IMG/VR virus record: IMGVR_UViG_3300036818_000089
Span: 1-64,000 of that record
Reading direction: 5' to 3' (one strand)
From: a virus
Length of the DNA stretch: 64,000 nucleotides
Below are positions 660 through 45,500 of the stretch, in pieces. The notes beneath the pieces were generated by a model that searched no databases, was not told the origin of the DNA, and worked only from the letters and a program-made list of their open reading frames with translations. The translations under genes were made by a program, and so were the position numbers. Each line of letters begins with the position of its first letter. Position 1 is the first letter of the stretch.

Positions 660-699
660 CCGGGTTGCTCCGTGGTGCCGTTCTGTCTGTGGTGACATC

Positions 700-747
700 A
701 GGCTACCGTCTCTAACCTACGATAAGCAAGGTTATCGTAGGTTAGAG
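700..747 (-). promoter_or_regulatory. Leftward promoter overlapped by 16-bp-arm palindrome (operator-like)
   Basis: CTCTAACCTACGATAA-gcaagg-TTATCGTAGGTTAGAG (710-747); minus strand TTGCTT-18 nt-TAGCCT. Confidence 0.6.
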
Positions 748-1047
748 GTGGAGTTGTCCACGAAATGTCCGGTCAAGCGGGTCCTATGTGCCAGCGCGCC
801 GAGGAACCCTCGACAAACCAGGGTCGATCTCCACCTCGCAGTCGACCAATCCCACCCAGTCCCCCACCGACGTCACCCACCACTCACGCAACACGCCAGC
901 ACCAGCCGTTCGCAGCGGTGAAGGTGTCCCACGTCAACGGCGCCACACGGGGCGCGTGCGCAGCGACACCGGCCGCGGGTTGCATGGTTGCCCGCCCGAC
1001 CTGGAAACCCCCAACACCCCGTCGGGCCGGGCCCGTAACCTCCGGGG

Positions 1048-1449
1048 ATGCTGCGGATGCCCGGACGGATCCTCGACGCCGTCACCACCCACTGCCGCCA
1101 CTCCCACCCCGTTGAGGCCTGCGGGATACTCGCCGGCCCGGTCGGCGGCGACCCGGACGAGGTCATCCCCATGACCAACACGCACAAGTCGAGCGTGCGG
1201 TACGGGTTCGACCCGCAGGAGCAGTTGACTGTGTGGCAACAGCTCGCCGACGCTGGCCGCGCGCCGCTGGTGATCTACCACTCCCACACCAACAGCGGCT
1301 CGACCATGTCCCGCACAGACATCGAATCTGCGGCCGAACCGGGAGCCCACTACCTGATCGTGTCTACCGCCCCGGATGCTTCGGCGGTGCGGGCGTGGCG
1401 TGTGGTGGACGGTGCCGCGGTCGAATCGCCGATCGAAGTCGTCCCGTAG
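1048..1449 (+). CDS. JAB/MPN+ (M67, Mec-like) metallopeptidase
   Basis: EACG...YHSH...S.TD JAMM motif; 133 aa. Confidence 0.88.
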   Translation: MLRMPGRILDAVTTHCRHSHPVEACGILAGPVGGDPDEVIPMTNTHKSSVRYGFDPQEQLTVWQQLADAGRAPLVIYHSHTNSGSTMSRTDIESAAEPGAHYLIVSTAPDASAVRAWRVVDGAAVESPIEVVP

Positions 1450-1513
1450 CCGGTACCGAACCGTCACCCAGGTTTCGTCACGGTGACAGTTCGGGTGGTC
1501 TCGCATCGGATCG

Positions 1514-1723
1514 TCATCGGCGAGTCCTCGCCCGCAACGGACCCGAATCGCCAGCATCCCCCACCACGCACCCAGGCGGGGACTGGCGGTTCTCGGCCGC
1601 AGTCACCGGCACCCGAAGATGCCCCACCCGCTGGCCGCTGTTCCACAGCCACCACTCCACGTCACCACCAACACCAGCCAGCATCCCGACAGCGGCGCGC
1701 TCCACCCTGCCTGCCGACGACAA
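1514..1723 (-). CDS. small hypothetical protein
   Basis: ORF co-oriented with the leftward arm. Confidence 0.35.
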   Translation of the reverse strand: MSSAGRVERAAVGMLAGVGGDVEWWLWNSGQRVGHLRVPVTAAENRQSPPGCVVGDAGDSGPLRARTRR

Positions 1724-1795
1724 ACGGCGCTGATAGTCAGGAGTCCAGAGAGAAAGGGAGGCATGCCAGACTGGCAGCCCATCGTTGAGACGCGC

Positions 1796-6145: not shown

Positions 6146-6948
6146 GCCGCGCCTCCAAAAGGCAACTCGTCTTGCACTGAACGATGCGACGAAGCCATCT
6201 CCGCCAGCACGCTGTTACGCCAGGCCACCGCGTACCGCAGGCAGTTCGCGCAGTTCTTGTGACCCGAACACCCCGCCATCGGACCGCCCGCGCGTCGCGC
6301 CTCGAACGACCACGCCATCGAGTCCGCAGACGCCAAGTGGTGCCCGTACGTCGACAGTCCGCGGCGCTTGACACCGAACCCGTGCAGCGGGATCCCGGGG
6401 TCAACAGCGCGGATCGAGGCCATGATGTGCCCGATCTCCCCGGTAGCCTGCCGGCGGCACACCGACCCGACACCCACCACCGGGAACCGGGACAGGTCGA
6501 CACCGGCCGCGGCGTAGAGGTCCATGCACCGCAGGTAGTCGTCGCGCTGCCAGCCCTGCAGGACCGGCATGAACGGCGAGCGCGTGTCGTCGCCCCGCAG
6601 GTCTTGCAGGTGCACGAAGTTGGCGACCGTGCGGGCCTGGTGCTCGGCCACGCTCAAGCCCGTCTTGGCCAGCATGAACGGCTCGCACATCCAGTCCTGC
6701 GGCGCCGCCCACGACAGGCGGCCGATCTCGCTGTCGTAGCGGCGGACCGCGGCCACGTACTCCTGCGGGGTGGTGCGCCACTCGCTGAACAGGGACAGTT
6801 CGGAGAACCCGCCGGAGTCCAGGGCCCAGTCGGCCACGGCGCGCGGCAGGCCACGGCGCCCGGCCAGACGGCGGTGCGAGACGAACAGGGGCACGCCCGC
6901 GGTTTCCAGCCAGTGGGGCTGGTGGGTGCCCAGGTAGAAGTAGGTCAC
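6142..6948 (-). CDS. dpdA: DpdA/TGT-like deazapurine transglycosylase (7-deazaguanine DNA modification)
   Basis: LDSGGFS, PQDWMCEP, PVLQG, VGVGSVC, LHGFG, SADSMAWS motifs of the TGT fold; GTG start at 6948. Confidence 0.8.
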   Translation of the reverse strand: MTYFYLGTHQPHWLETAGVPLFVSHRRLAGRRGLPRAVADWALDSGGFSELSLFSEWRTTPQEYVAAVRRYDSEIGRLSWAAPQDWMCEPFMLAKTGLSVAEHQARTVANFVHLQDLRGDDTRSPFMPVLQGWQRDDYLRCMDLYAAAGVDLSRFPVVGVGSVCRRQATGEIGHIMASIRAVDPGIPLHGFGVKRRGLSTYGHHLASADSMAWSFEARRAGGPMAGCSGHKNCANCLRYAVAWRNSVLAEMASSHRSVQDELPFGGAA

Positions 6949-7505
6949 GCTGCCACCGCCCCGGTTCGGGTGCCGGTGGCGCGTTGGATGGTTTCGCGGA
7001 GCAGCAGGTAGGTGCCGGTCACCCAGATCGCCTTCACCAACAGTTGCCCGGCCACGGCAGGTCCGGTGATGCCCAGACCGGACAGGCCCAGGAACATCAG
7101 GGTGTCGATGACGGCGCCGGTCCAGGTTCCGGCGATCACCGCGACACGCCAACGGCGCTGGGTGCGCAGGCGGCTGTAGACGGCCATGTCGAGCGATTCG
7201 GACACCAGGAATGTGGTGCCGGAGGCGAGCGCGATCCGCCCGGATCCGGTGGCCCACGACAGGAGCGCGCCGGCCAGGATGCAGGCGAGCACCCAGCGGC
7301 GGCCCGCCGCGTCTTGCAGCGTGTTGCGTAGCGCGATCACGCCGCCGGCGAACCACGTGCCGGCTGGGGCTAGCAGTCCGAGGCCGACGTGGGTGAGGCC
7401 GTAGCGGCTGGTGACCCAGTTCGCTGCGACGATGCCGGCCAGGTACAGGGCGGCGACGAGAATGGCTGCGCGTGGCCTGGTCGGGCCAGCCGGGTCGGGG
7501 ATCAT
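6945..7505 (-). CDS. yhhQ: VUT/YhhQ-family queuosine-precursor (preQ0/preQ1) transporter
   Basis: IVAANW, PAGT, R..LQD..G, RIALAS..FLVSE.LD.AVY..LR, IDT..FL; multiple TM helices. Confidence 0.85.
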   Translation of the reverse strand: MIPDPAGPTRPRAAILVAALYLAGIVAANWVTSRYGLTHVGLGLLAPAGTWFAGGVIALRNTLQDAAGRRWVLACILAGALLSWATGSGRIALASGTTFLVSESLDMAVYSRLRTQRRWRVAVIAGTWTGAVIDTLMFLGLSGLGITGPAVAGQLLVKAIWVTGTYLLLRETIQRATGTRTGAVAA

Positions 7506-8743
7506 GCCGCGGTCCTCTCGATCAGTTCGGGCAACATCGCCCGGTACGCCAACAGGGCTTGGGCCGGCACGACGCCGTTGCCCAACAGGTGAATCTGGTC
7601 CGTCCGCGCCAGGCCAGGCACGTCCGTGACCCAGCCGGCGGGCAGGCCCATCAGCCACTCCACGAACTGGGGGCTCAACTGGCGTCCTCCACGTCGTCCC
7701 ACAACGACGGGTGCCGGTGCAGGTCGACCGAGGACGAGCTCCCAGCGTCGGACGGCGGGTCCGTAGGCTCCCCACTCCAGACCTGCCGGGCGATCCCCGT
7801 CAGCAGCAGCTCGTCCGACCCGGCACCTCCCCGTGCCGCCCTCGTCCCGTCCGCGTCCGCCACGGTCGGAGTCGGCAGCAGCGCCGCCACCTCGTTCAGC
7901 GGACGCGAGTTCTTCCCGTGCTGATTCGACGCCGACGACTTCCAGTCCCGCGCCGCGGGCGTCGGCAGCAGGTGCACCACTGTCCGCATGTCCGGGCCGC
8001 CCGTGCCGTGCGTTCCGGGGCCGTTCGTGTCCGAGGCTTTCGGGGTCGGCAGCAGCGCGATCGCGTCGTCCAGGTTCCGCTTGCCCTGCGCGAACCGCTT
8101 CGCCGCCGACCCGGTCGACATGCTCCTCGATGAGTGATCCCCATCCCTGGCCTGCGCGGTCGGCAGCAACGGCGAGGATGAAGATCCGCCTGCGTCGATG
8201 GGGAGCACCGGCGTCCGATGCCCGTACACAACGCCACTCCGCATCGAACCCGAGGTTGGCCAGGTCGGCGAGGGCTCGGCCCAGCTCTCCGAGAGGAGCG
8301 ATGCTTGCGACGTTTTCCAACAGCACGATGCGGGGTCGTAGGTCGCGAATGGCTCGCGCGACGGCCGGCCAGATGGCTCGCTCATCTTCGGTGCCCTTCT
8401 TCTTGCCGGATGTGGACCAGGGCTGGCAGGGCCATCCCGCGGTGAGCCAGTCGATACGACCGGCCCACGGCGCCCAGTCGGCGGTGGTGATGTCCCCGAC
8501 GTTCGGCACACCTGGCCAGTGGGCATCGAGGACACGGCAGGGGGTGGGCTCGGCGGGCTGCGCGAGCCAGCCGGAGTCACGCCCGTTGCCGGGAAATTCG
8601 CCGTCCTCGCCGAGGTGAGCGGCACGACATGCGGCGTCCTCACAGGCGAGAGCTGCCTCACGGGTGCAGAACGGGCACTCGTTGGGGTACCACTCGTCCT
8701 TGCGTGGCAGCGCGAGCGGGCCCTCGCGGGGGACGTCGGTCAT
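7502..8743 (-). CDS. C5-cytosine DNA methyltransferase-like protein lacking motif I (chimeric N-terminus; possibly inactive)
   Basis: GDIT, GWPCQPWS (IV), LLENV (VI), HRRRRIF (VIII), FVEWLMG (IX), LGNGVVP (X); no FxGxG upstream. Confidence 0.82.
   Translation of the reverse strand: MTDVPREGPLALPRKDEWYPNECPFCTREAALACEDAACRAAHLGEDGEFPGNGRDSGWLAQPAEPTPCRVLDAHWPGVPNVGDITTADWAPWAGRIDWLTAGWPCQPWSTSGKKKGTEDERAIWPAVARAIRDLRPRIVLLENVASIAPLGELGRALADLANLGFDAEWRCVRASDAGAPHRRRRIFILAVAADRAGQGWGSLIEEHVDRVGGEAVRAGQAEPGRRDRAAADPESLGHERPRNARHGRPGHADSGAPAADARGAGLEVVGVESAREELASAERGGGAAADSDRGGRGRDEGGTGRCRVGRAAADGDRPAGLEWGAYGPAVRRWELVLGRPAPAPVVVGRRGGRQLSPQFVEWLMGLPAGWVTDVPGLARTDQIHLLGNGVVPAQALLAYRAMLPELIERTAA
7675..8385 (-). 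CDS. Alternative-frame protein nested in the MTase gene (LLPTP repeats)
   Basis: Stop-free ~236-codon frame with WKTSQ.SL, WPTSGSMRSG and four LLPT(P/A)xxxD repeats. Confidence 0.6.
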   Translation of the reverse strand: MSEPSGRPSREPFATYDPASCCWKTSQASLLSESWAEPSPTWPTSGSMRSGVVYGHRTPVLPIDAGGSSSSPLLPTAQARDGDHSSRSMSTGSAAKRFAQGKRNLDDAIALLPTPKASDTNGPGTHGTGGPDMRTVVHLLPTPAARDWKSSASNQHGKNSRPLNEVAALLPTPTVADADGTRAARGGAGSDELLLTGIARQVWSGEPTDPPSDAGSSSSVDLHRHPSLWDDVEDAS

Positions 8744-8825
8744 CGGGGTGTCCTCTCGGGTCAGGGGGTCAGCCGGGCGGCGGGGTGCCTCGTGCCCGGG
8801 GGAAGTCGGGCACGAGGCGGGTCGG

Positions 8826-8927
8826 TCACTTGCGCTTCGGGTCCTGCTGCTTGCGGTTCCACTCCTGGGCGCCGCGCACGATGCCGTCGAACATCGGGTC
8901 GCTATCGGGCTTGTCTTCCTTGGCCAT
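8826..8927 (-). CDS. 33-aa peptide MAKEDKPDSDPMFDG...
   Basis: AGGAGACCGACATG start context; below ORF-track cutoff. Confidence 0.55.
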   Translation of the reverse strand: MAKEDKPDSDPMFDGIVRGAQEWNRKQQDPKRK

Positions 8928-8955
8928 GTCGGTCTCCTTCGGTCGGTCAGGTCGG

Positions 8956-9051
8956 CTACTTCCTGGACGGGCAGAGCGAGTTGGGGCAGGTGCCGCCGAC
9001 GGTCTTGACCGTGCCGCACTCGGGGCACTGCTCGACGGGGGGCTTGGGCAT
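8956..9051 (-). CDS. 31-aa Cys4 peptide MPKPPVEQCPECG...CPNSLC
   Basis: Same AGGAGACCGACATG start context; CxxC..CxxxxC. Confidence 0.55.
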   Translation of the reverse strand: MPKPPVEQCPECGTVKTVGGTCPNSLCPSRK

Positions 9052-9173
9052 GTCGGTCTCCTCGGTGTGTCGTGCTCTGCGTTCGTTGAGCGGTCGGTCT
9101 CGGCGGGTGGACATCGGGTCCTCGGTTGGGGTGCCGTGCTCCCTGGGGAAGCGGGAGCACGGCGGGACAGAGG

Positions 9174-9362
9174 TCAGCGGCTAGCGGTGGACAGACAGGA
9201 CTTGCAGACGCGGAGTCCCCACGGGACGTTGCTCCGCAGGGTGAAGTCCGTCCGGCCGCACCGCGCGCGGTCCACCTGACCGTGGGCGTCGTAGTGGGCT
9301 ACGTGCGCCTTCACCTTCCGGTGAACGGCGGCCTTGCCGCGTTTGATCAGGAAGTCGGCCAT
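9174..9362 (-). CDS. small Zn-binding-like hypothetical protein
   Basis: AGGAG RBS; H...CG...CKSC. Confidence 0.55.
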   Translation of the reverse strand: MADFLIKRGKAAVHRKVKAHVAHYDAHGQVDRARCGRTDFTLRSNVPWGLRVCKSCLSTASR

Positions 9363-9673
9363 GTCGTGCTCCTCGGTACGTTCGGATCGTCGTTGACGTG
9401 CATCCACTGAGGCATGGCCGCCCGCGAGATGCCCGTGATCAGTTCCTTGGCCCTCTTGACGATCGCTTCCGGCCTTCGTTCGCCCTCGCTTCTCGGCGCT
9501 CCGACGAAGTCCGCGATCTGCGACAGAGCGGCGCGCAGTTCGCGCACCTCTGCCTCAAGGTCGGCCCTCTCTTGGCTCCCGATCTCGGCGATCACGTCCC
9601 GTGCTACGCGGTAGCGACTGGCTCGCCTGCGGGCACTGAGCCACGCGAGCCGGGTCCGATCGACGTCATTCAC
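9347..9673 (-). CDS. hypothetical protein with coiled coil
   Basis: RTRLAWLSARRRA motif seen in actinophage small proteins. Confidence 0.55.
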   Translation of the reverse strand: MNDVDRTRLAWLSARRRASRYRVARDVIAEIGSQERADLEAEVRELRAALSQIADFVGAPRSEGERRPEAIVKRAKELITGISRAAMPQWMHVNDDPNVPRSTTWPTS

Positions 9674-9777
9674 GGTTGCCCCTCAGTTGCTGTGTCGGTT
9701 GCGGTTGTGCTCGGAGTCGCGGCGGTCCTGGATGTCCTCGGCCGTCTCCCGCATCTGCTGGGCCTCTGGCGAACGGC

Positions 9778-10431
9778 TCACGGCAGGACCGTCACGTCGG
9801 CGCGGTCGAGGTCGGCCACGGTCTCGGTGGTCCAGTCCTCCGGGTCGCGCGGCGAGGCGAACCGGACGCGCCGCTGGGACTCGTCGCCCACGTCGCAGTT
9901 CGGGTGGTGCCCGGCCTGAGGCGCACCCTCGTACGGGTACTCGCAGGTGCACTCGGGCTCGGTCACGGCGGTGATGCGGTAGACGTGCCCGGCGAGCGGG
10001 AACCGGATACGCCTGCCCACTTCGTACTTGCTGGCGGTGATGTCGTTGTTGGTCATGGCGGTGGCGTCCTCCATGTAGGTCCACTCGATGCGGGTGATCT
10101 CCACGTCCGGCGAAATGTCCTGCGCCTCGACGAAGAAGCGGCGCACGAACTCGGCGGGCGACATGCCGGGGAAGCCCTCCAAAGCCACCTCGGCGGCGGT
10201 GATGGCGTTGAGCGGTTCGCGACGCACGGCGACCACCTCGACCTCGGCGAGACGGACCAGCGGCTCACCCGGCTTGCGGCCTTGGGACTTGAGGACCAGC
10301 GTCAACCGGTCGCCGGGCAACAGCATGCGGCGGCCGTACTTGTTCTCCCACCAACCTCTGCGGCGGGTCACGGTCTTCGTGCGGTCCCGGACGGCCTGCA
10401 CAGTCATGGCGACGCTCATCAGTCTCGACAC
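9778..10431 (-). CDS. ASCH/PUA-like domain protein, apparently fused in frame to a second small domain
   Basis: KTVTRRRGW, PGDRL, RREPL..IT..EV..EGF; internal GGAGG+ATG (MTNND). Confidence 0.75.
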   Translation of the reverse strand: MSRLMSVAMTVQAVRDRTKTVTRRRGWWENKYGRRMLLPGDRLTLVLKSQGRKPGEPLVRLAEVEVVAVRREPLNAITAAEVALEGFPGMSPAEFVRRFFVEAQDISPDVEITRIEWTYMEDATAMTNNDITASKYEVGRRIRFPLAGHVYRITAVTEPECTCEYPYEGAPQAGHHPNCDVGDESQRRVRFASPRDPEDWTTETVADLDRADVTVLP

Positions 10432-10464
10432 TGCGGTCAGTTCTCCTCGGTCTTCGTGCGAGGC

Positions 10465-10638
10465 TCAGCGGTTCACGTCGGCGACATCCGCCCAGGCGCC
10501 GTCCGATGTCTCGCGGCTGACCAAGACAGCACCCGACGCGGCGGAACGGGCTGCCTCGTCGTGGGCGGTGTCTTCGGGTACGTCGCTGATCCAGCGGCTG
10601 TCGGGGATGCGGACGCCCCACTGTCTGGTGTCGCTCAT
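10465..10638 (-). CDS. small hypothetical protein
   Basis: Coupled ORF. Confidence 0.55.
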   Translation of the reverse strand: MSDTRQWGVRIPDSRWISDVPEDTAHDEAARSAASGAVLVSRETSDGAWADVADVNR

Positions 10639-10751
10639 CGGGCCGTGACCAGGGTGGCGAGCCACGCGCAGAAGACAGCGGCGACCAGAACGGCCATGAG
10701 GGGTGTGGCGAACGCGCGCCAGGGGATGCCCTTTCGGGCGTGGTGGTGCAT
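10635..10751 (-). CDS. small membrane peptide
   Basis: Single hydrophobic helix; first gene of the leftward arm. Confidence 0.5.
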   Translation of the reverse strand: MHHHARKGIPWRAFATPLMAVLVAAVFCAWLATLVTAR

Positions 10752-10911
10752 GTGTGCCTGCCTTGGTTCCGTGTGGTGACGGTGTACCCGAATACTACAC
10801 CACCGAGGTAGGATTCGAGCAAGGCCGCCCAGCATTCACGCTGATCAACACCACACGACGGCACACCACCGTCCTATCCCCCGTCACCGACACCCACATG
10901 GAGGACCACGC

Positions 10912-11205
10912 ATGGCCCGACTCCCCGGCGAAACCGTCACCGGCACCTGGATGACGGACACCGGTGCCACCATCAGCGGGCTCCACTACACCGTGAAAGG
11001 ACTCGCCGAACTCCTGGGAACCACCGCCGAGAACGTGCACTACCACATCCGGAAAGGGCACGTCCCGACCCACAAGGTGGGCCAAGCGAGGCTCATCCCG
11101 GCAGCGGACGCCCGCCGGATCGCGCGGGGCTACACACGGAACCGGGACTGGCCCACCACCTCGAAGGACTCGCCACATGCCCCGAGAAGTCGACCGACGC
11201 CGTGA
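10912..11205 (+). CDS. Excisionase/MerR-like winged HTH DNA-binding protein
   Basis: YTVKGLAELLGTTAENVHYHIRKGHVPTHKVG...LIP; GGAGG RBS. Confidence 0.75.
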   Translation: MARLPGETVTGTWMTDTGATISGLHYTVKGLAELLGTTAENVHYHIRKGHVPTHKVGQARLIPAADARRIARGYTRNRDWPTTSKDSPHAPRSRPTP

Positions 11206-11217
11206 ACCGGCCGAAGC

Positions 11218-12297
11218 GTGAAGGTGTACGGGTGGCCCGGCGACAACTTCGGGTGCTGCCACTACCGAATCGCCATGCCCCTCGACGAACTCGCCCGCCG
11301 CGGACACGACGCTGTGTGGAGCAGGGTCGCGGTGAAGGGCATGTTCGAGGCGATGCTCGGCGCCGACGTGATCGTCGGGCAGCGCGTGTCGGAGGGGTTC
11401 GCGTCGGCACGCTGGCAGTCGTGGGCGTTAGCGCGGCAACCCGAGTACACGCGCTGGATCAGCAAGGTCGGGCAGCAGCGGCCGGAGCTGTTGGCGATGT
11501 GGCGGCAGGCCATGTCGCGCCCGCGGCCACGTCTGGTGTTCGAGATCGACGACGACCTGTGGTCCGTGGATCCGTCGAGCCCGGTGCACGGCCAGTTGGC
11601 TCGCCAACCGGAGTGGGCCCGGCATCTCGCCACGAACGCTTCCGTAGCTGACACGGTCGTTGTGACCACCGAGCCGTTGGCGGAGATCATGCGGCGCCAC
11701 AACCCTGACGTGCGGGTCGTCCCGAACTTTGTGCCGGCCGCGCTACTCGACCACCATCCGCCGCGCCGGCAAGACGGGACCGTCACCATCGGGTGGGCCG
11801 GGTCCCCCACGCACGCCATGGACTGGGCCGTCATGGACGAAGAACTCCGGCGGTTCCTGCGGAAGACGCCACAGGCCGAGCTGCATGTGATCGGGGCGCC
11901 GGTGCAACGCTGGTCGCGGATCCCGCCCTCGCGGATGCGGTCCACCGGATGGTTCCCGTCCGTCGACGCCTACCTGCGGTCGGTGGACTTCCACATCGGG
12001 CTCGCCCCGCTCGCGCAGCACCAGTTCAACCTCAGCAAATCCCCGGTGAAAGTTTTGGAGTACGGGGCCCTCGGTATTCCCGTCATCGCCTCCGACGTCG
12101 GCCCATACCGCGACTACGTCCGCCACGGCGAAACCGGCTACCTCGTCCGCAAGCCTGGCGATTGGCTGCGGTATCTCCGCGAACTGGTCCACGACGAGGC
12201 TGCCCGCACCGAGATGGGCGCCGCCGGACGCAGACAAGCCGCCGAGAACACCATCGAGAGGAACGGACACCTGTGGGAAGCAGCGATGGCAGGATGA
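11218..12297 (+). CDS. GT-B (GT4-like) glycosyltransferase
   Basis: FEIDDDLW, IGWAGS, FNLSKSPVKVLEYGALGIPVIASD, HGETGYLV. Confidence 0.9.
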   Translation: MKVYGWPGDNFGCCHYRIAMPLDELARRGHDAVWSRVAVKGMFEAMLGADVIVGQRVSEGFASARWQSWALARQPEYTRWISKVGQQRPELLAMWRQAMSRPRPRLVFEIDDDLWSVDPSSPVHGQLARQPEWARHLATNASVADTVVVTTEPLAEIMRRHNPDVRVVPNFVPAALLDHHPPRRQDGTVTIGWAGSPTHAMDWAVMDEELRRFLRKTPQAELHVIGAPVQRWSRIPPSRMRSTGWFPSVDAYLRSVDFHIGLAPLAQHQFNLSKSPVKVLEYGALGIPVIASDVGPYRDYVRHGETGYLVRKPGDWLRYLRELVHDEAARTEMGAAGRRQAAENTIERNGHLWEAAMAG

Positions 12298-12797
12298 CCA
12301 CAGTTGATCTGGTGGTTCGCCTGAAGGCAGCGATCGAGGCGAAGGCAGCCAAGGCGCGAGCAGCGACACCCGGACCGTGGTTCACTCCCGAACCCGGCGA
12401 TATCGCGGAGTGGACGGTGTACGGGGCGCTCAGCGCCGACCGCCGCCGGGGCTGGGCCATCTTGGAGACGCGCCAGTTCCCGCGAGAGTGCATGTACAAC
12501 GAGGCATCGGGCCTGAGGATGCCCGCCATGGTCGTTGAGCACGCGAACGCGAATGCCGAGCACATCGCCGACAACGACCCGGCCGACGTGCTGCGCGGGT
12601 GCGACGCGGACATGCATATGGTCCAGCTTCACGCCGACCAGCACGAGTGCGCTGGGTACGGGCCCCGCGCATACGGCTTCCCCTACCAGGGTTGCGACAC
12701 GCTGAGGCTGATGGCCGCCCGGTACAAGATCGACGGCTGGCCAATCGATGTGGACGAGCACGGCGAGCCCCTACCGACCGACGAGGAGGACGCGTGA
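12294..12797 (+). CDS. DUF6221-like protein (paralog of 1978-2409)
   Basis: AEHIADNDPADVLRGC; CDTLRLMA..Y. Confidence 0.75.
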   Translation: MTTVDLVVRLKAAIEAKAAKARAATPGPWFTPEPGDIAEWTVYGALSADRRRGWAILETRQFPRECMYNEASGLRMPAMVVEHANANAEHIADNDPADVLRGCDADMHMVQLHADQHECAGYGPRAYGFPYQGCDTLRLMAARYKIDGWPIDVDEHGEPLPTDEEDA

Positions 12798-13036
12798 CGA
12801 CGAGCATCAGCGACGAGCAGGTCGTCCAAGCCTGCCGCGAATGGGCCGAGGAACCCCACACAGGGTCACTCGACCGGCTGCAGCACATCACCGGCCAGTC
12901 GGAGGAAGCCTGCGCGGCCGCGATGCACGCCACCCGCGAGCACGGCCTGATCGAGTGGGGTATCGGCATGGACACCGCGTGGCCCACGCCAGCGGGCGAG
13001 CACCTGTTCGGGCCGTCACACGACACCGCGACGTAA
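12794..13036 (+). CDS. small hypothetical protein (possible winged helix)
   Basis: GTGA-coupled ORF with GAGGAGG RBS. Confidence 0.55.
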   Translation: MTTSISDEQVVQACREWAEEPHTGSLDRLQHITGQSEEACAAAMHATREHGLIEWGIGMDTAWPTPAGEHLFGPSHDTAT

Positions 13037-13071
13037 CCACCCCGCTGTCGACTGTTCGGGAGACCACCGCC

Positions 13072-15033: not shown

Positions 15034-15108
15034 CGCGGGATGGCTGTGGCGGAGGGGTCGTGCACGGTGACGCCAGCCTCATCCGTCACCACAAGCCGGG
15101 AGCGCACC

Positions 15109-17223: not shown

Positions 17224-17332
17224 GTTTTGGCCTGCCTGGTCCGTGTGGTGACGGTTTGTACAGGCAGAACGCTACGCCCCGCACCCGACAGTGGCAACCA
17301 CCAATTTTAGGTCACATGACCGGCCACATGGC

Positions 17333-18653: not shown

Positions 18654-18697
18654 CCCCATCCGTCACCACACGGTAAAGAACGGACAATCGAACAGTC

Positions 18698-32268: not shown

Positions 32269-32403
32269 TGTGGAGCATCGGATCGGTGATCTGCTCCACA
32301 GCGGGTTTGCTGCTCCACCGCAGGTCAGGTCGCGTAGCAGACGTGGAGCAGCAGCGGAGCATGTGGTGACGTGGGCGGCTGGCTGCTACGTAGGTGCTCC
32401 ACC
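32269..32403. repeat. Cluster of TGCTCCAC/GTGGAGCA 8-mers (5 exact plus variants), intergenic
   Basis: Copies at 32270, 32292, 32311, 32343, 32395 in both orientations. Confidence 0.8.
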
Positions 32404-34942: not shown

Positions 34943-35001
34943 TGCTGGCCTCCGTTCAGGTTTCCGGTGGTGACGGATGGGGTGGAGCGGTGAGCGGTGG
35001 G

Positions 35002-35307
35002 TCAGGTCTGTCGCTTGAGGTTGCGGCGCTGCCGTTCGGACAGGCCGCCCCAGATCCCGAACCGTTCGTCATGGGTCAGGGCGTAGGCGAGGCAGTCCGC
35101 CCGGACGTCGCAGCCCTGGCAGATGCGTTTCGCTTCGCGCGTTGAGCCGCCCTTTTCGGGGAAGAACTCCTCGGGGTCGGTTTGCGCGCACAGCGCCCGG
35201 TCCTGCCATTCCTCGACGTCGGAGGGCACGAGATGTTCGACGAAGTCGGCGAACGCCTGCGCACGGGTGGGGATGGTGTTGACGGGGGCGGCCGTGGTGA
35301 TGGTCAT
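35002..35307 (-). CDS. whiB: WhiB-family Fe-S transcription factor (WhiB/WhiB2-like)
   Basis: WQDRALCAQTDPE.FFPEKGGSTREAKRIC..C.VR..CL.YAL..DERFGIWGGLSER.RR. Confidence 0.95.
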   Translation of the reverse strand: MTITTAAPVNTIPTRAQAFADFVEHLVPSDVEEWQDRALCAQTDPEEFFPEKGGSTREAKRICQGCDVRADCLAYALTHDERFGIWGGLSERQRRNLKRQT

Positions 35308-35516
35308 TGGCGTGGCCTCCGTTGTGTGCCGTGTGGTGACGGATGGGGCTGGGGGTGCTCGTGTTGTGGTGACGGACGGGTGATCTTGTTGACTCTCACG
35401 GTTTTCAGTGAGTGGGGTCAACATCGAGATCGAACGTAGCACGCGGACGACCTCCCATCAACCCCCAGCAACACTCCACCTTGCGGAACCCCCCTCAACC
35501 TTGCATGATGTGGGGC

Positions 35517-36359
35517 ATGCCCGACATTGAGGAGGTCCAGGCCCTTGACGACCCGTGGGAGCGGATGCGTCGCGCACACGAGCAGGTCGTCTATCACCAG
35601 ACGCAGGGCGGCGAGTACGCGAGGATCCGGCGTGAAGCGATCGAGGACCTGATCGGCCGGAAGGTCAAGCAGGCCGACATCGCTCGGATGCTGGGAGTGA
35701 GCTCGTCGCGGATCAGCCGCCTGCTGTCCTCGGCCCCCAAGGTCGAGCGTGCGCTACTGGGCACCGGGCCTGTCACGATCTCCGTCGGCGGCAAGTGGGA
35801 AGCGGCCAAGGAAAAGCCTGAGGCGGTTGTGTCGCGGCCCATGATGCGGGCCTGCACGCTGCTGGGTTCCATGTGCGTCGACTACGAACTGGGGTTGGCG
35901 GCCGAGGACTACGAGGTCGTCCCGCCGCCGGGTCACGTGCGTTTGAACAGGGACAACTTGATCGTGATGGGCAGCCCGCGGATCCTGCCGCTAGTCGGCC
36001 AGGTCCTCGAAAGCGACGAACACCTGGCTTTCGGGTGTGGCCCCGACGGCTGGTACCTGGTCGACCAGGACAGCGACACCCCTTACCGCTCGCCCAGCGA
36101 CCGCGGTGAGGCAGCGGACTACGGCTACATCGGACGCCTGCCCCGCCCGGACGGTCGGGGAACGTTCCTGTACCTGGCCGGCATCCACGCGATGGGCACC
36201 CTCGGAACCGTGCAGTACCTGGTCAGCAACATCGAGGACCTGTATCGCGAGGTCAAGACCCACCGATGGTCAACGATCGTCGAGACCAGATACAACCCCG
36301 CCGACGGCACGATCGTCGCTGCTGAACGCGTCACACCCATCCACGTCGTTCGACAGTAA
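35517..36359 (+). CDS. sigma70-r4-like HTH regulator with C-terminal domain (divergent from transfer operon)
   Basis: QADIARMLGVSSSRISRL; YGYIGRLPRPDG.G.FLYLAGIH. Confidence 0.75.
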   Translation: MPDIEEVQALDDPWERMRRAHEQVVYHQTQGGEYARIRREAIEDLIGRKVKQADIARMLGVSSSRISRLLSSAPKVERALLGTGPVTISVGGKWEAAKEKPEAVVSRPMMRACTLLGSMCVDYELGLAAEDYEVVPPPGHVRLNRDNLIVMGSPRILPLVGQVLESDEHLAFGCGPDGWYLVDQDSDTPYRSPSDRGEAADYGYIGRLPRPDGRGTFLYLAGIHAMGTLGTVQYLVSNIEDLYREVKTHRWSTIVETRYNPADGTIVAAERVTPIHVVRQ

Positions 36360-38832: not shown

Positions 38833-39149
38833 CGGCGATGGGATCCTCCCGAACCGGCACCTCGGCGGTCGCCCGGCAGGTCGGCGGCTAATAGCCGCCA
38901 GGCGGCTGAACGTAAACCCGCAGGTCGGACCCAAACAGCCGCGAGGCGGCCGGACGGTGAGCCCAGCGGCAGCGGTGATGGATCTTCAGGTCGCGCTATG
39001 CTGTCCACGCCGCCTTATCTGCGGCCTTTCGGGGCCGACGCTCGGGTTTGATGACCCGTTCTGTTTGTGGTGACGGATGGGATGGCAATGGCGGCCCCAG
39101 CGAGCGAACCTAGGCGCTGGGGCCGCTCCCACGCCCACCGTGTGCGGGA

Positions 39150-39764
39150 TCAGTCGGTGGCGTCTCCCTGACCGTGCATGCCGCTGGTGTTGCGGCCGTG
39201 GTGGTACCACCACCATGTGCGTTGCGGCACGTGCACGATGCGGGCGTTTTTGGCGACGCAGCCGAGCGTGAAGGCGAAATCCTCGCCGTACCGCTGGCCG
39301 CCGATCGACTCGTCGACGGGCGGCGGGTGGAACCCGACGGCTTGGGCGAGCTCGGTGCGGACCAGGGTGGTGATGGTGGTTTGGTGCGGGTCGCTCGGGT
39401 CGAACGGTTTCCCGAAATGGCCGAGCGGGTCGGCTGTGCTGTCGCGGCCGGAGGCGTCGCGCACCTGGTAGTAGGAATACACGTAATCGGCGCCCTGCTG
39501 GGCTGTCCCGGCGAGCGCCTCAAGGTGGTCTCTCATCCATTCGTCATCGGAGTCAAGAAACGCCACCCACGGCGCCCGAACAGCCTGCAGGCCCTGGTCT
39601 CTCGTGCGCCACGCGCCGGCGCGGTGCCGGTCAACCACCACATGCAGCTCGGCCGGCTGAAGGGTCTGCGCCCACACCGACGCCACCGCCCGATCGAGCA
39701 TCCCGTTGCGGACGCGCGCCGGGTGGGCGGGGATGACAACAGCGATGTCTCCGATGTCCAACAC
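39150..39764 (-). CDS. GT2-family glycosyltransferase
   Basis: VVIPAH...L.RAVASV..QT, WVAFLDSDDEW, GEDF.F. Confidence 0.88.
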   Translation of the reverse strand: MLDIGDIAVVIPAHPARVRNGMLDRAVASVWAQTLQPAELHVVVDRHRAGAWRTRDQGLQAVRAPWVAFLDSDDEWMRDHLEALAGTAQQGADYVYSYYQVRDASGRDSTADPLGHFGKPFDPSDPHQTTITTLVRTELAQAVGFHPPPVDESIGGQRYGEDFAFTLGCVAKNARIVHVPQRTWWWYHHGRNTSGMHGQGDATD

Positions 39765-39932
39765 GTCGTGCCCTTCTGTCCGGTGTCGGGTACAGAACGG
39801 TCCCGCGTCCGACGGAAGGGGACGCGGGACCGTGTGTCGCCCTGGAGGGGCGGTCCGTGTGGTGACGGATGCAGCTGTGGTGGTTCCTGGACTGAGCCAA
39901 TCACGGCGGTCCGCCACCGGTCAGGGTGCTGG

Positions 39933-40271
39933 TCAGATCGCGTCGTAGGTGCGGTGCCAGCAGGCGGGGTGTGCGTAGAGCTGCTCTCGTGTGCCGTCCA
40001 GACCCGAGGGCATCATGGGCTTGCCCTTCCGGATCAGGTCGGGGCATTCGGAGCAGGGCATGTCGCGAGGTGCGGCGGGCGCATCACCGGGGGTGTTTGA
40101 CGCGCCCGCCGCGGTCTCGGATCGGCTCACGCAGCGGCCGAGCAGGGTAAGCGCGGGCGCGCGGTGTGCCGCCAAAGCGGCGAAGGCAACATGGGGCGAG
40201 GCCTCCCGGCAGGCGTCGGCTGTGGTGGTTCCTGTAACCAGTCTTCGGTTACGGATACACCCTGTCAACAC
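39933..40271 (-). CDS. hypothetical protein (start uncertain; C-terminal C/H-rich)
   Basis: CSEC...HPAC; divergent from XRE gene. Confidence 0.35.
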   Translation of the reverse strand: MLTGCIRNRRLVTGTTTADACREASPHVAFAALAAHRAPALTLLGRCVSRSETAAGASNTPGDAPAAPRDMPCSECPDLIRKGKPMMPSGLDGTREQLYAHPACWHRTYDAI

Positions 40272-40320: not shown

Positions 40321-41160
40321 ATGGCTGGAACCGGTGACACACCCCGCGCGCATCAGCTAGGTGCGGAAATACGGGATCTGAGGCTTGTCGCCGGTATCGG
40401 CTTCCGCGAGCTAGCCAGACAATTGGGCTACACCCACACAAAACTCAGCCACATTGAATCCGGGCGTCGAGCACCAACACCTGAAGACACCGCCACAATC
40501 CTCGCCCACCTCGGCGTCACCGACGACAAACGTGAAGAACTCCTGGCCCTGGCCCGCGCAGCAGCCGACCCCGACTGGGTAGCGCCCGGCGTCGGCAAAA
40601 CACTGGCCGCGCTGCTGGAATACGAACGCACCGCGAAACTGATCACCGAAGCCAACCAGGCCCTCATCCCCGGTCTCCTGCAAACCAGGGACTACGCCCG
40701 CTCGATCATGCTCAGTTCAGGTGCCACCACCGGGGAGGCCGACCATCGGGTAGCGATCAGGATGAGCCGCCGCGACGTCCTCGACCGCGCCGACCCGGTC
40801 ACGCTCCGCGCACTGGTCGGCGAGTACGCTCTGCGCTACCCCGCCTGCGACGCATCGGTCATGTCCGACCAGATGCGGCATCTACTCAAATGGGGAGAAC
40901 GGGAAAACGTAGAAATACGTGTCATCCCGATCGCCAGCCAATGGACACCCGTCCACAACGGGCCATTCGTGCTGATCGAATTCGAACGCCCCAACCCTGT
41001 GGTCCACCTCGAAAACTACAGGTCAGCTGTCTTCGTCACCGACAAGCGTGACGTGCGCGATTACCAGAACGCGGCGGAGAACCTCCGCCGGGCGGCGATG
41101 AACCCCGCAGCCACAACGGGGCTCATCACCGAATTGCTGAACCGATGGGAGGAGCAATAA
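40321..41160 (+). CDS. XRE HTH + DUF5753 regulator (WhiJ/Scr1-like)
   Basis: LG.EIR.LR...LSHIESGRR; IPGLLQTRDYAR; followed by DUF397. Confidence 0.92.
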   Translation: MAGTGDTPRAHQLGAEIRDLRLVAGIGFRELARQLGYTHTKLSHIESGRRAPTPEDTATILAHLGVTDDKREELLALARAAADPDWVAPGVGKTLAALLEYERTAKLITEANQALIPGLLQTRDYARSIMLSSGATTGEADHRVAIRMSRRDVLDRADPVTLRALVGEYALRYPACDASVMSDQMRHLLKWGERENVEIRVIPIASQWTPVHNGPFVLIEFERPNPVVHLENYRSAVFVTDKRDVRDYQNAAENLRRAAMNPAATTGLITELLNRWEEQ

Positions 41161-42681: not shown

Positions 42682-42762
42682 GGCGGCCTGCCCTTCCTTA
42701 TGCGACGTCGGGGTCTTGTGGTGGCCAGTCCGGGGCGACGCGCCGCAGGCTGGGTAACCGTG

Positions 42763-43173
42763 CTAGCGCTGGTCGGGGATCTCGTCCCCACCGGACAGGC
42801 GGGATCCGGCGGGTGGAGTCGACGTCGATCGGGACCCAGGTACCGGAGATGCTTCGATACCCGGGCCCGGTCGGTCCGACCGTGCTGCGGTGTAGACGGG
42901 TGCGGCCGCGTAACCCAACGCGAGGGTGATGAGCCATCCCGGGACGCGGGGTTCCAGCCACCGCCACAGCCCGTACCACCCGGCGGTAAGGACCGCCGTC
43001 ATCGCGGCGACGACCAGGTCGTGCACGCGGGCCAACACGATCAGCGGCAGGCCGAGCCCGACCAGCCACGACACGGCGAAACCCCACGCCACTGGAACGA
43101 CGGTGCGGATGAGGCTGATGGCCCCATCGGACAGCGGCTGGTCCGGGTCCGGCCCGGCGATGTGCTGCGACAT
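42763..43173 (-). CDS. holin
   Basis: SLIRTVVP..W; 2-3 TM helices; directly after endolysin. Confidence 0.75.
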   Translation of the reverse strand: MSQHIAGPDPDQPLSDGAISLIRTVVPVAWGFAVSWLVGLGLPLIVLARVHDLVVAAMTAVLTAGWYGLWRWLEPRVPGWLITLALGYAAAPVYTAARSDRPGPGIEASPVPGSRSTSTPPAGSRLSGGDEIPDQR

Positions 43174-44177
43174 CACGACGCTCCCTTCGGGGTGACCAAC
43201 ACGTTGAACCCGTTTCCGAGGTAGACCTCCATGTCCTTCGCGACCTCGTCGGCCATCGCCGCGACCTGCGCGTCGGATACCTCAACGTCGGGCGCGGCGA
43301 GCGCGGCCTGTAGGGCAGCGACCTTGGTTGCCAGATCAGCCAGCGCGTTCTGCTGGGACTGGTCGAGGGCGATGTCCTGCTTGATCAGCGTCGACAGCGT
43401 GGACACGGCGGAGGCGAGTAGGCCGCGGAACGCGAAGATCTCGGCGTTCGTGCGTCCCTGCGGGTTGCCGCCTGGGGTGGAGTTGCCGACCAGCAGGTCG
43501 TGTGCGGCCGATGCGATCTCGGCGGACTGCTGCGCGGTGAGCTTGTTGATGGGACTGGTCACGGTTGGCTCCAGAGTGAATAGTCGGTTGGACAGGTCGC
43601 AGGTGACGCCGCCGATCACGCGGGTGACGGGTGTCGCCGGGCCGTCGGCTGCGGTAGCGGGTCCGCCCTGGCGCTGCCAGAAGGTGGCGACGTCAGCGGT
43701 GCCGGTGCGCGAGGGCGCGGGCCCGGCCTGCCAGGCGATCGGCGCGAGCCCGGCCTTGGCGCACGCGGCGAGGAACGCCCCGAACCCGTACGGGCCGACC
43801 GTGAACCGGAACGGGGTGAGGACGTCGTGGAAGCCCTTCACGTACTCGATGTCGGCTTGGTTGAACCCGGGCTTGTCGTTGGCGGCGAACACCATCGTGA
43901 CGGGTGGCTGTCCGGCAGTGATGTTCCGCAGGTCGGTCAGGGCGATCGCTGCGTTGGCCCGCCCGGTGGCGTACCCGCCGTCGGCGTCGGTGGTGGTGCG
44001 TTCGACAACGGCGATGGTTTTGCGGCCGTGCGCGAGGTGGTCGGCGTACTCGGCGTGGGTGAGGCGTTTGCCGCTGCCGCCGAGCCCGACGTAGCGGATG
44101 GCGCCTTCGATCCCGGCCGCCCGCATGGACGCGCCGGACACGGTGCCGCCGCTGTAGTCGATCCACACTGTGGTCAC
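43173..44177 (-). CDS. endolysin (DUF1906/GH25-like glycoside hydrolase domain)
   Basis: IDYS...AG..G.IRY, KRLT..E, GPYG, CD; lysis-cassette position. Confidence 0.78.
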   Translation of the reverse strand: MTTVWIDYSGGTVSGASMRAAGIEGAIRYVGLGGSGKRLTHAEYADHLAHGRKTIAVVERTTTDADGGYATGRANAAIALTDLRNITAGQPPVTMVFAANDKPGFNQADIEYVKGFHDVLTPFRFTVGPYGFGAFLAACAKAGLAPIAWQAGPAPSRTGTADVATFWQRQGGPATAADGPATPVTRVIGGVTCDLSNRLFTLEPTVTSPINKLTAQQSAEIASAAHDLLVGNSTPGGNPQGRTNAEIFAFRGLLASAVSTLSTLIKQDIALDQSQQNALADLATKVAALQAALAAPDVEVSDAQVAAMADEVAKDMEVYLGNGFNVLVTPKGAS

Positions 44178-44308
44178 GGCGCCTCCCGTGCGGGAGCGCG
44201 ACGCCAGGAGACACGGCCGTCGAGGAATTCGAACGCCAGCCAGTCCGGGCCTTCGGCGTGCACGAGCACGTCGTGCCCGTCCTCGCGGCGGATCGTCGGC
44301 GCGGCCAT
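44174..44308 (-). CDS. 44-aa hypothetical peptide
   Basis: Translationally coupled on both sides. Confidence 0.45.
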   Translation of the reverse strand: MAAPTIRREDGHDVLVHAEGPDWLAFEFLDGRVSWRRAPAREAP

Positions 44309-45108
44309 CAGCTCACCCGCTTCACGGTCCAGAAGTCCGAGGACAGCCGCGAGTCGGTCAGGTAGGCGTAGGGCAGCGTGAACAGCCCGCCCTTGCCCCA
44401 CCCGGTGCCCCACGAGTTGCGGCAGATCCACCGCTGGATCGCGTCGTCGTAGCCCACCGCGACAACGCAGTGCCCGCCGAGCTGCTCCTCATCCCGGCTG
44501 GGCATCGGGACGGTGCCGGTTTCGGCGACCTGCCGGGACTCGAAACTGGCGTACACAGTGAACCCGAACACGACCGGTGTGCCACCGGCCAGCACCGCCT
44601 TGATCTGGTCCGCCTGCTGCGGCACGCGTTCGTACACGACAGCCTCGGTGCCCGATGCGGCCGCGTAGCACGCCGAGGTCGGCTTCTGGCCGGCGCGGTG
44701 CCCAGCCGGCCACGACCCGTCGCTGTTGGCCGCCTCGCCGTCGTAGGGCCACTCGGCTTCTGGGCACACGCCCTGCTTCGCGACCGAGCGGACACCATCG
44801 CGGATCTGCGCGCCGGAGTCCGAGCCGACGCTCTTCTCCATCGCGCGCTCGTTGTAGTAGATGAACAGGCGCGACGGCATGAAGTCGGCGAGGTTCTGCT
44901 TGCGCATCTCGTACTCGACTGCCGCGCCGATGCCGTTCGCCGTGCACGACCCGATCTGCTGCTGGTCGTAGATCGGCGGCATCGCAGGGTCGGTGGACAG
45001 GTCCGCCGCTGCGGGCAGGTGGGCCAGCGTCTCTGGCGCTGCCGTGCGTACGCGGTCGCGGTGGTCGGGTAGATCCGCGACCCAGCCGTATCGTCTGTCG
45101 GTTCGCAT
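44308..45108 (-). CDS. C1A papain-family cysteine peptidase (xylellain-like)
   Basis: DQ.QIGSCTA, SRLFIYYNER, GGHCV..VGYDD, CRNSWG..WG. Confidence 0.92.
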   Translation of the reverse strand: MRTDRRYGWVADLPDHRDRVRTAAPETLAHLPAAADLSTDPAMPPIYDQQQIGSCTANGIGAAVEYEMRKQNLADFMPSRLFIYYNERAMEKSVGSDSGAQIRDGVRSVAKQGVCPEAEWPYDGEAANSDGSWPAGHRAGQKPTSACYAAASGTEAVVYERVPQQADQIKAVLAGGTPVVFGFTVYASFESRQVAETGTVPMPSRDEEQLGGHCVVAVGYDDAIQRWICRNSWGTGWGKGGLFTLPYAYLTDSRLSSDFWTVKRVS

Positions 45109-45140
45109 GCCTGGTGTCCTTTGGTGGTTGTGGTGACGGA

Positions 45141-45500
45141 TCAGGGGGATGGGGGTAACTGCTGGGACATCGTCTTGACCTGCAGGCGCAGGAAGTTCAG
45201 TTCGGTCTGGGCGTCGGCCAGCTTCGAGTTCAAGTCCTCGGCTCTGGCGTTCGCGGACCGCAGTTGGCCGGTCATGTCGCGGATGGTGCGTTCGGCGCCG
45301 GAGAGCTTCGACTCCAACTCCTCCACCCGCTCCCGGTAGGGCTTGAGGAGTTCCACCGCCGACTTGACCACAAGGCGGTCGCCTTCGTCGGCCTGCTGGT
45401 CCCGCTCGGCGCGGCGTTTACGCCAGCCGTCGACGATGCCCCACAGGCCGGGGATCCACGCGGCCGCGCCGATCAGGCCGATCAGCAGCACGGCGTTCAC
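45141..45500 (-). CDS. TM plus coiled-coil lysis-region protein
   Basis: N-terminal TM helix, long heptad repeat. Confidence 0.7.
   Translation of the reverse strand: MNAVLLIGLIGAAAWIPGLWGIVDGWRKRRAERDQQADEGDRLVVKSAVELLKPYRERVEELESKLSGAERTIRDMTGQLRSANARAEDLNSKLADAQTELNFLRLQVKTMSQQLPPSP

Follow-up and report, generated by a model that had tools for sequence, protein, structure and literature searches.

A 64,000-nucleotide stretch of viral DNA, positions 1 to 64,000 of IMG/VR record IMGVR_UViG_3300036818_000089 (hereafter the window), carries a short sequence word, the GTCACCACA motif, that recurs in the gaps between genes, usually just ahead of a start codon. The window corresponds to the minus strand of bases 11811–75810 of contig C13, part of a 9.08-Mb assembly of 287 contigs. 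The best-matching public run is a soil metagenome, so the assembly is probably a metagenome bin; the runs listed as matches were two of soil-metagenome DNA and none of RNA. The motif is a genuine cis element that is private to the genetic element carrying it, is under selection and acts in a way tied to transcriptional direction; it is strictly oriented, intergenic, conserved among relatives and no fixed part of a promoter. Its sequence is new, and its kind is already known from actinobacterial phages. We infer that its reader is a protein that acts on DNA and represses. The explanation we favour, tentatively and at somewhat less than an even chance, is that the motif is a binding site, operator- or stoperator-like, for a regulator encoded by the element.

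Occurrence, orientation and conservation of the motif

The 11-mer CCGTCACCACA occurs nine times in the window, against 0.13 copies expected, and none of 100 shuffles reached nine. The exact copies begin at 10772, 17244, 35332, 35365, 39066, 39858 and 45129 on the minus strand and at 15083 and 18660 on the plus strand, all where an initial annotation of this DNA had placed them. With up to one mismatch allowed, the window holds 16 matches versus 2.9 expected, and the word is by far the most over-represented 10–12-mer of C13. A weight-matrix scan of the whole contig found 14 strong sites, and weaker variants lie at 688, 10881, 60142 and C13 ~11180; about 17 copies are present on the 75.8 kb. The core was delimited from 30 sites in three phages, in which TCACCAC is invariant and the flanking G and A are each kept in at least 90%, giving GTCACCACA. 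In the C13 element the core is extended to CCCATCCGTCACCACA(C/A), and neither the 9-bp core nor the 16-bp extended word is palindromic.

All 14 strong sites are intergenic (P about 5e-13), the intergenic share of C13 being 13% by our own rough gene calls, which used codon log-odds trained on the contig. All 14 also point the same way as the gene that follows (P 6e-5), so that the intergenic placement and sense orientation described initially hold on a scan of the full contig. The accompanying description of the motif as start-associated and 5' of the ribosome-binding site fits 11 of the 14, where the core ends 15–27 nt before the start codon and upstream of the Shine–Dalgarno sequence (SD); it does not fit 39066, 39858 or the upstream tandem member at 35365. 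The SD is a separate element, 5–12 nt downstream of the core. Every motif gene has an upstream gap of at least 30 nt, and the motif occupies 6 of the 48 same-strand gaps of that size. Tandem copies stand before the whiB-like gene and likewise occur in two contigs of the relatives introduced below (G404 and G403). No motif site accompanies the partition, replication or XRE-regulator genes.

The motif had been described as genome-wide, a term that suits the element and not its host. The assembly contains 20 copies of CCGTCACCACA, 12 of them on C13; none of the eight in the host has the extended context, and one repeated coding sequence accounts for four of these. C13 also has all seven of the assembly's copies of the 14-mer CATCCGTCACCACA. 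Six other genomes of the host genus yielded no copy of this 14-mer, and in 400 host-family genomes it occurs at most once per genome, 18 times in total, similar to a reversed control word. A host-wide signal was rejected: the proposed comparison with host DNA found no similar frequency, and neither genus nor family genomes are enriched.

Searching IMG/VR with the capsid protein yielded two relatives, both partly sequenced: contigs G401 and G404 from one metagenome, at ~75% nucleotide identity to C13, and contigs G403 and G406 from another, at ~70% (IMG/VR 3300036795 and 3300024426). Orthologues of the sites at 18660, 17244, 10772, 10881 and 688 are retained in them, and the orthologous 19-nt blocks are identical at 14–19 of 19 positions, whereas their flanks are 35–77% identical, which answers the conservation check suggested at the outset. 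The 5' extension of the core is lineage-specific, its usual form in the G403/G406 relative being CCACCA-CTGTCACCACA-C. Individual sites turn over: G401 has no copy ahead of the exonuclease gene, a copy ahead of YqaJ in G406 has no counterpart in C13, and some copies precede non-homologous genes among the relatives. Enrichment on C13, strict orientation, retention in relatives and lack of enrichment in the host genus and family together support the initial proposal of a phage-specific regulatory element tied to starts.

Searches beyond these relatives did not find the motif. A more distant one (IMG/VR 3300025913_000034; 90% complete, capsid 73% identical) contains neither the motif nor any repeated start-associated word, and the motif was not found in six prophages with 44–59% capsid identity or in 46 phages and prophages that share the AAA_24 recombination module (28–60% identity). 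A megablast of 20 kb against phages and plasmids gave no match, a 15-mer scan of IMG/VR returned only 99 single chance matches and the two relatives' contigs, an 18-mer scan of metagenome contigs 26 chance matches, and a 35-nt leader searched against isolated phages chance matches only; a literature search for the motif string retrieved only primers. Three protein queries found no relatives spanning 23–56 kb. Some of the 46 AAA_24-sharing phages carry a different start-associated word, GACCTCTTGGAGA, in 5–7 copies on one strand, 7–14 nt before starts and often right after the upstream stop codon; it was seen in locus L202 and about 20 similar IMG/VR prophage loci (L195–L221). Private start-associated words are therefore recurrent in this wider group.

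The sites and their predicted promoters

The sites are given below in the coordinates of the window.

688–698, minus strand: near copy, variant ATGTCACCACA, heading the leftward gene 276–659; a −10-like TAGCCT (700–705) lies 3 nt before GTCACCACA, and the G401 orthologue reads TAAGTT-GGG-GTCACCACA.
10772–10782, minus strand: exact copy, followed after 20 nt by the ATG at 10751; downstream of TTGCTC (10817–10822)-19 nt-TAGTAT (10792–10797), with 9 nt from the −10 box to the motif; motif and −10 box retained in G404 and G406.
10881–10892, plus strand: degenerate copy, CCGTCACC-G-ACA, ahead of the HTH_17/glycosyltransferase operon, which runs rightward from the ATG at 10912; at the orthologous site G404 has an exact CCGTCACCACA and G406 has CTGTCACCACA.
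15083–15093, plus strand: exact copy; the nucleotide-sugar epimerase gene (15109–16014) follows after 15 nt with a GTG start, and in G404 the copy has decayed to CCGTCACCGGC.
17244–17254, minus strand: exact copy, followed after 20 nt by the ATG at 17223; 14 nt downstream of TTGCCA (17292–17297)-17 nt-TAGCGT (17269–17274); motif, −10 and −35 boxes retained in G404.
18660–18670, plus strand: exact copy within CCCATCCGTCACCACACGG, after the stop codon of YqaJ and ahead of the AAA_24 (Sak4-like) gene (ATG 18698); against G404 the core is 19/19 identical and the flanks 47–77%.
32362–32372, minus strand: near copy, ACGTCACCACA, not start-associated, inside a GTGGAGCA/TGCTCCAC repeat field; membership doubtful.
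34966–34976, minus strand: near copy, CCGTCACCACC, 23 nt before the ATG at 34942 of a 63-residue gene that follows whiB.
35332–35375, minus strand: tandem pair of exact copies (35365–35375 and 35332–35342) ahead of the whiB-like gene 35002–35307, the first gene of a leftward TraB-type operon.
39066–39076, minus strand: orphan exact copy, after the stop codon of a GT2 gene and a hairpin with a 10-bp stem (39093–39124); it retains a ACAGAACGGG box, with no start codon after it.
39858–39868, minus strand: orphan exact copy, not start-associated, after the stop codon of a small zinc-ribbon-like open reading frame and followed by a hairpin with a 12-bp stem (39799–39831), then the GT2 gene.
45129–45139, minus strand: exact copy sharing bases with the upstream stop codon (CTGATCC); 20 nt further on is the ATG of a papain-like peptidase, the first gene of the lysis block.
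60142–60152, minus strand: weak variant, CCGTCACCATC; the major capsid gene follows after 17 nt with a GTG start.
Beyond the window: copies at C13 154, 2199, 2431 and 6165, plus a GGGTCACCACA variant.

Among the near copies proposed initially, those at 688 and 34966 are real; the one at 32362 exists as a sequence, is not start-associated and is a doubtful member. Both weaker copies, at ~10880 and ~60143, were upheld, the former as the degenerate site with orthologues in G404 and G406 and the latter as CCGTCACCATC before the capsid gene. The longer leader noticed at 10772 and 17244 is genuine, and it is shared because both sites lie just downstream of sigma-70-like promoters. The leaders at 10772 and 17244 are paralogous, as are those at 45129 and 75647. 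The GT2 glycosyltransferase gene (39150–39764) lies between the direct copies at 39858 and 39066 and between two strong hairpins, an arrangement that resembles an inserted cassette.

In four divergent regions a predicted sigma-70-like promoter lies just upstream of the motif and is retained in the relatives. One in G406 reads TTGACA-18-TACGGT; its leader is 50 nt long, and the motif falls at about +28 to +40. The predicted spacing from −10 box to motif runs from 3 to more than 30 nt, which places the motif in a zone from about −3 to +40, and this variability argues that it is not a fixed promoter part. Copies lie 3–16 nt downstream of −10-like boxes at 688, 10772 and 17244, and none accompanies the predicted rightward promoter of the Cro-like gene (~17350). 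The internal copies at 18660, 45129 and C13 154, 2199 and 2431 follow or overlap an upstream stop codon and have no box of the form TANNNT, the actinobacterial −10 rule.

Competing explanations for the motif

In the explanation we favour, the element encodes a single sequence-specific regulator that recognises the motif, most likely in double-stranded DNA. At operon heads, where the site lies between the −10 box and the ribosome-binding site, the bound protein would stop transcription at initiation or early in elongation; at operon-internal sites, it would stand in the gap ahead of a gene as a roadblock that depends on orientation. The ~17 sites would thereby put the transfer (whiB–TraB), lysis, packaging-proximal, recombination and glycosylation modules under one switch. 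This DNA-level regulator site is preferred because all experimentally resolved precedents of dispersed asymmetric phage sites are, to our knowledge, repressor sites on DNA; because the positions at promoters are operator-like, the −10 spacing varies and tandem copies occur; and because several uncharacterised DNA-binding proteins are encoded and the tests for RNA structure gave no support.

The C1 repressor of phage P1 is monomeric. Its 22 asymmetric 17-bp operators, dispersed in a phage-plasmid, allow one repressor to serve many operons (PMC8546580); P1 thus resembles C13 as a plasmid prophage with many dispersed asymmetric sites but differs in host phylum, sequence and repressor family. Stoperators of the L5 type are asymmetric and oriented with transcription (PMC6550527, PMC9283540), and a stoperator-type system has been reported in the Streptomyces phages R4 and phiJoe (PMC10276819). 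The cluster A stoperators (L5 gp71, Bxb1 gp69, TipsytheTRex) share with the C13 motif an asymmetric 13–16-bp, multicopy character, short intergenic gaps and mainly one orientation; in cluster A one or more copies also sit at early promoters, and in C13 some lie just downstream of predicted promoters. Some cluster A phages, like the plasmid-type C13, are extrachromosomal parABS prophages (PMC6550527, PMC9283540, PMC10276819). Their sequence, however, is unrelated, they number more than 20 in ~50 kb versus ~17 in 76 kb for C13, and protein and profile searches found no gp71-family repressor in C13. Nor have stoperators been described with the start-codon coupling, ATG bias and SD bias of the C13 motif.

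Those three properties recall a second group of words. The asymmetric 18-bp motif of cluster EC Microbacterium phages (Quhwah), with about 12 copies that all point alike, lies in small intergenic regions, 21–30 bp upstream of starts and 5' of the ribosome-binding site (PMC7302621), and the start-associated sequences (SAS) of cluster K mark ATG-biased genes (PMC3203893). The EC motif and the SAS/ESAS words of clusters K and EF are, like the C13 motif, phage-private asymmetric sense words in 10–19 copies, intergenic and just before the starts of genes of different families, and absent from host genomes (PMC7302621, PMC3203893). The anatomy of the EC motif is the same as that of the C13 motif and its sequence unrelated, a resemblance of kind and not homology; it begins with a −10-like TAGACT, and several C13 copies lie just downstream of recognisable, if predicted, promoters. 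The SAS sits at the ribosome-binding site itself, 3–8 bp before the start and with AGGAG, whereas the C13 core ends 15–27 nt before.

Several observations weigh against a roadblock on DNA. The motif keeps its distance of 15–27 nt from starts even in gaps of 94–390 nt, and it stays near the start in a 50-nt 5' untranslated region though far from the promoter; such closeness counts against a roadblock because a roadblock does not require it. Motif genes begin with ATG in 11 of 12 cases, compared with 18 of 42 other genes with gaps of at least 30 nt (P 0.003). ACGGA lies in the SD zone of 7/12 motif genes versus 6/110 others (P 1.6e-5), often as part of AGAACGGAGG, a match to the 16S 3' end at 9 of 10 positions. 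ATG bias and an extended SD are features of translation, as with the SAS of cluster K. Moreover, the promoters were deduced from TANNNT-type boxes and conservation, and a strict E. coli-type scanner called none. Lastly, no reader protein was found among the candidates examined: a protein search with L5 gp71 gave no match on C13 (best in the assembly E 0.86, on another contig), and the phrog_357 profile of gp71-type repressors gave only noise at the level of the helix-turn-helix (HTH; E 0.86).

The initial annotation had named a divergent HTH gene at 35517 (here 35505–36359) as a candidate reader, a proposal that its distribution does not support. Its family occurs at more than 50% identity in hundreds of actinomycete sequences and in 27 plasmids; in such plasmids it is syntenic with a PP2C-like partner and an FtsK/TraB operon, and two plasmids with a homologue contain no GTCACCACA in 40–50 kb. 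Given this distribution and the motif-less plasmids, it is a plasmid-backbone gene and not a motif-specific reader. The Cro-like protein is an unlikely reader because the palindromes of its switch (17290–17330) differ between C13 and G404 while the motif is the same, and the XRE-DUF5753 regulator has its own unique palindrome, GTAACC-N7-GGTTAC at 40234, distinct from the motif. The HTH_17 protein (10912–11205) and a 359-residue HTH_23 protein (21628–22707) are present in motif-bearing phages and have no homologue in the motif-less relative (73% capsid identity), which also lacks the Cro-like gene; both are remaining, weak candidates from a comparison of three genomes with one, all fragments. 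A small GerE-type protein (19843–20217) is a further DNA-binding candidate that falls outside this phyletic argument because it has no match in any relative. The leader type of ops/JUMPstart and RfaH differs in that C13 encodes no NusG paralogue (PF02357), the only NusG being that of the host on contig C240. Among the ~70 of ~122 predicted products scanned, most head and tail genes being outside the scan, there was neither an RNA polymerase gene nor a recognisable RNA-binding protein, but many candidate DNA-binding proteins. Besides those named above, the candidates include a 111-residue product (16888–17223), WhiB (35002–35307) and a 203-residue sigma-r4-type protein (C13 5491–6102).

Four mechanisms had originally been listed without ranking (a start-associated sequence, a stoperator-like operator, an RNA processing site and a translation enhancer). 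None is proven, and the enhancer gained no support in the forms based on RNA structure and rRNA pairing. About half of the sites can form a CCGU-CACCAC-ACGG hairpin; over 30 sites, 59% of its positions are paired versus 58% in shuffles, 170 of 500 shuffles score as high, and the hairpin was rejected as showing no covariation beyond shuffles. Sequestration of the SD, or an unusually open leader, was rejected on an SD accessibility of 0.52 in motif genes against 0.47 in others (P 0.2). Pairing with 16S rRNA, for which the sequence came from a genome of the same genus as the assembly has none, was also discarded: the duplex energy is no better than for shuffled motifs, and an 8-mer match falls in a variable region. 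An antisense small RNA at 39066 fared no better, since the plus strand folds well, like a small RNA (z −3.0 to −3.3), but the anti-motif seed is itself paired. Rfam gave no match at gathering score in the window, which holds no tRNA or tmRNA genes. The hairpin, SD accessibility, 16S pairing and antisense ideas thus found no support.

A linear version of an RNA-level role is the main rival. Here the motif would be an unstructured mRNA word 6–12 nt 5' of a strong SD, setting the translation or stability of ~14 cistrons, and its reader an element-encoded RNA-binding factor or small RNA; in function it would then be akin to the cluster K SAS or the cluster EC motif. The absolute sense orientation suits this account, as does the one anatomical constant, closeness to the start codon and not to a promoter. 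Motif genes are biased to ATG and the extended SD (AGAACGGAGG), the orphan at 39066 keeps its SD-like box without a start codon, as if motif and SD moved as a unit, and the SAS-like GACCTCTTGGAGA marks starts in other AAA_24-sharing phages; published analogues occupy the same position, in cluster EC (PMC7302621) and as the ATG-biased SAS (PMC3203893). The same tag must, however, work with no conserved hairpin, no difference in SD accessibility, 16S complementarity like that of shuffles, a candidate antisense RNA whose seed is paired and no recognised RNA-binding protein among the products scanned. At 688-type sites the predicted transcription start lies inside the motif, so that part of it would be missing from the RNA, and the most highly expressed genes, such as capsid, have only a degenerate copy. 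We also know of no phage in which a linear RNA tag of 9–16 nt is read by a protein. On balance we regard such a tag as possible, if rather unlikely, and the fuller claim, that an RNA-level GUCACCACA tag in ~14 mRNA leaders coordinates translation of the transfer, lysis, recombination and glycosylation modules, as unlikely. If true, it would be a type of post-transcriptional regulon not yet demonstrated for any actinobacteriophage and would provide the first mechanism for the start-associated motifs of clusters K, EC and EF.

Two further accounts seem to us improbable. The motif might be a junction or leader repeat, a conserved joint for the recombinational exchange or insertion of cassettes with regulation secondary, by analogy with the PeSL cassettes of T4-type phages and the boundary sequences of lambdoid phages. 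The GT2 gene between two direct orphan copies and hairpins looks the part, as do the tandem leader–leader joints at whiB and in G404, the turnover of sites before non-homologous genes, the paralogous leaders (45129/75647 and 10772/17244) and the duplication of AGGAACCACCACAGC beside 39858. Yet 9–16 nt of identity offers little length for homologous recombination, the motif is present in only 6 of the 48 same-strand gaps of at least 30 nt, and perfect conservation of the core at orthologous sites, against ~25% overall divergence, points to selection on the sequence. PeSL repeats are likewise conserved, oriented and placed at gene junctions with gene turnover between them, but contain an early promoter and a stem-loop, whereas the C13 repeat has no promoter or conserved stem. 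Equally doubtful is the idea that the motif serves a redirected RNA polymerase as promoter or start-site element, dependent on a sigma-like factor or appropriator of the element in the manner of T4 late or T7 promoters, with transcription starting a few nucleotides downstream. A contiguous, oriented 16–19-bp block 20–30 nt before starts, at the head of modules (lysis, packaging-proximal, whiB), would be expected of it; the GerE/sigma-region-4-like protein (19843–20217) and WhiB are encoded, and a separate repeat in G403 has an extended −10 (TGGTTTAAT) followed by CACCACAACAG. No RNA polymerase gene was found among the products scanned, though, the 841-residue protein being of AAA/TraB type; CCCATCCGTCACCACA contains no TANNNT and has no conserved −35 or ECF-type (extracytoplasmic function) GGAAC upstream; four or five sites already have a sigma-70-like promoter upstream at variable spacing; and a strong hairpin follows the 39858 copy by 20 nt. 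An ECF-type promoter was rejected, with CGTC present and GGAAC at −35 absent.

Should a single regulator read the motif, its sites would define the regulon that sets lytic and transfer functions apart from the maintenance of the plasmid. Actinobacteriophages repeatedly carry phage-private words, dispersed and oriented, ahead of gene starts, and a mechanism is known for the stoperator class alone. The present example adds a plasmid-type prophage with conjugation-type genes, in which one word joins lysis and packaging, plasmid transfer and glycosylation cassettes; beyond the definition of this regulon, the motif would not surprise a specialist. Its natural variation is useful for tests, with two lineage-specific 5' extensions around one invariant core, promoter-near and operon-internal sites, orphan copies and a motif-less close relative.

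The C13 element and neighbouring features

C13 measures 75,824 bp, and a 23-bp overlap of its two ends shows it to be a circular contig. Family scans identified a full siphovirus virion and lysis block with head, tail and terminase genes, a divergent switch of the lambda type whose HTH protein is Cro-like, the recombination genes YqaJ and AAA_24, genes for glycosyltransferase and epimerase enzymes, ParA and a tyrosine recombinase. A WhiB gene heads an operon with an 841-residue AAA (TraB-like) protein, next to a divergent HTH/PP2C-like pair, and plasmids of Micromonospora and Saccharothrix show synteny with this pair and with the FtsK/TraB operon. By its gene content, C13 fits a circular, phage-plasmid-like, candidate conjugative element.

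In the switch, between a 111-residue gene (16888–17223) and the Cro-like gene (17368–17619), the interval 17290–17335 contains the palindromes GGTCACATGACC and GGCCACATGGC, in place of which the switch region of G404 has CATCTG-centred palindromes; the difference suggests heteroimmune operators. The rightward switch promoter (TAGAAT) leaves room for almost no leader. The XRE-type gene with HTH_31 and DUF5753 (40321–41160) starts at the ATG at 40321 and not at the TTG chosen by a naive caller. Its unique palindrome GTAACC-N7-GGTTAC (40234–40252) overlaps a divergent promoter (TTGACA...AAGACT) and is probably the regulator's own operator. Nearby, beside the 39858 copy, AGGAACCACCACAGC is duplicated at 39874–39888 and 40219–40233.

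Around the doubtful copy at 32362, five GTGGAGCA/TGCTCCAC words in both orientations lie at 32270–32402, in a 299-bp non-coding gap of the transfer operon; the cluster may be a clt-like or iteron site. The scaffold–capsid intergenic region, close to the 60142 variant, has three direct CCCGGATGGG(C)AC copies at 60170–60270, and the window as a whole has 4 versus 0.56 expected. Outside the window, an Rv2179c-like 3'–5' exoribonuclease gene (C13 6197–6721) is preceded by a CTGT variant of the motif; the neighbouring 203-residue protein (C13 5491–6102) has a sigma-r4-type HTH, and its PHROG family is labelled 'RNase E', where Pfam shows the HTH only.

At the IMG/VR loci L192, L180 and L183, clustered iteron-like repeats adjoin the AAA_24 module. 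A second repeat, TGGTTTAATTGTCNCA-CACCACAACAG / TGGTTTAATTGTCNCACACCACAACAG, occurs six times in the G403/G406 relative (G403 6224–14924; G406 about 5361) and contains the extended −10 (TGGTTTAAT) and then the related CA-rich leader CACCACAACAG; the TGGTTTAATTGTCNCACACCACAACAG repeat has the look of an extended −10 promoter joined to a conserved CA-rich leader and a Shine–Dalgarno sequence, ACGGAG.

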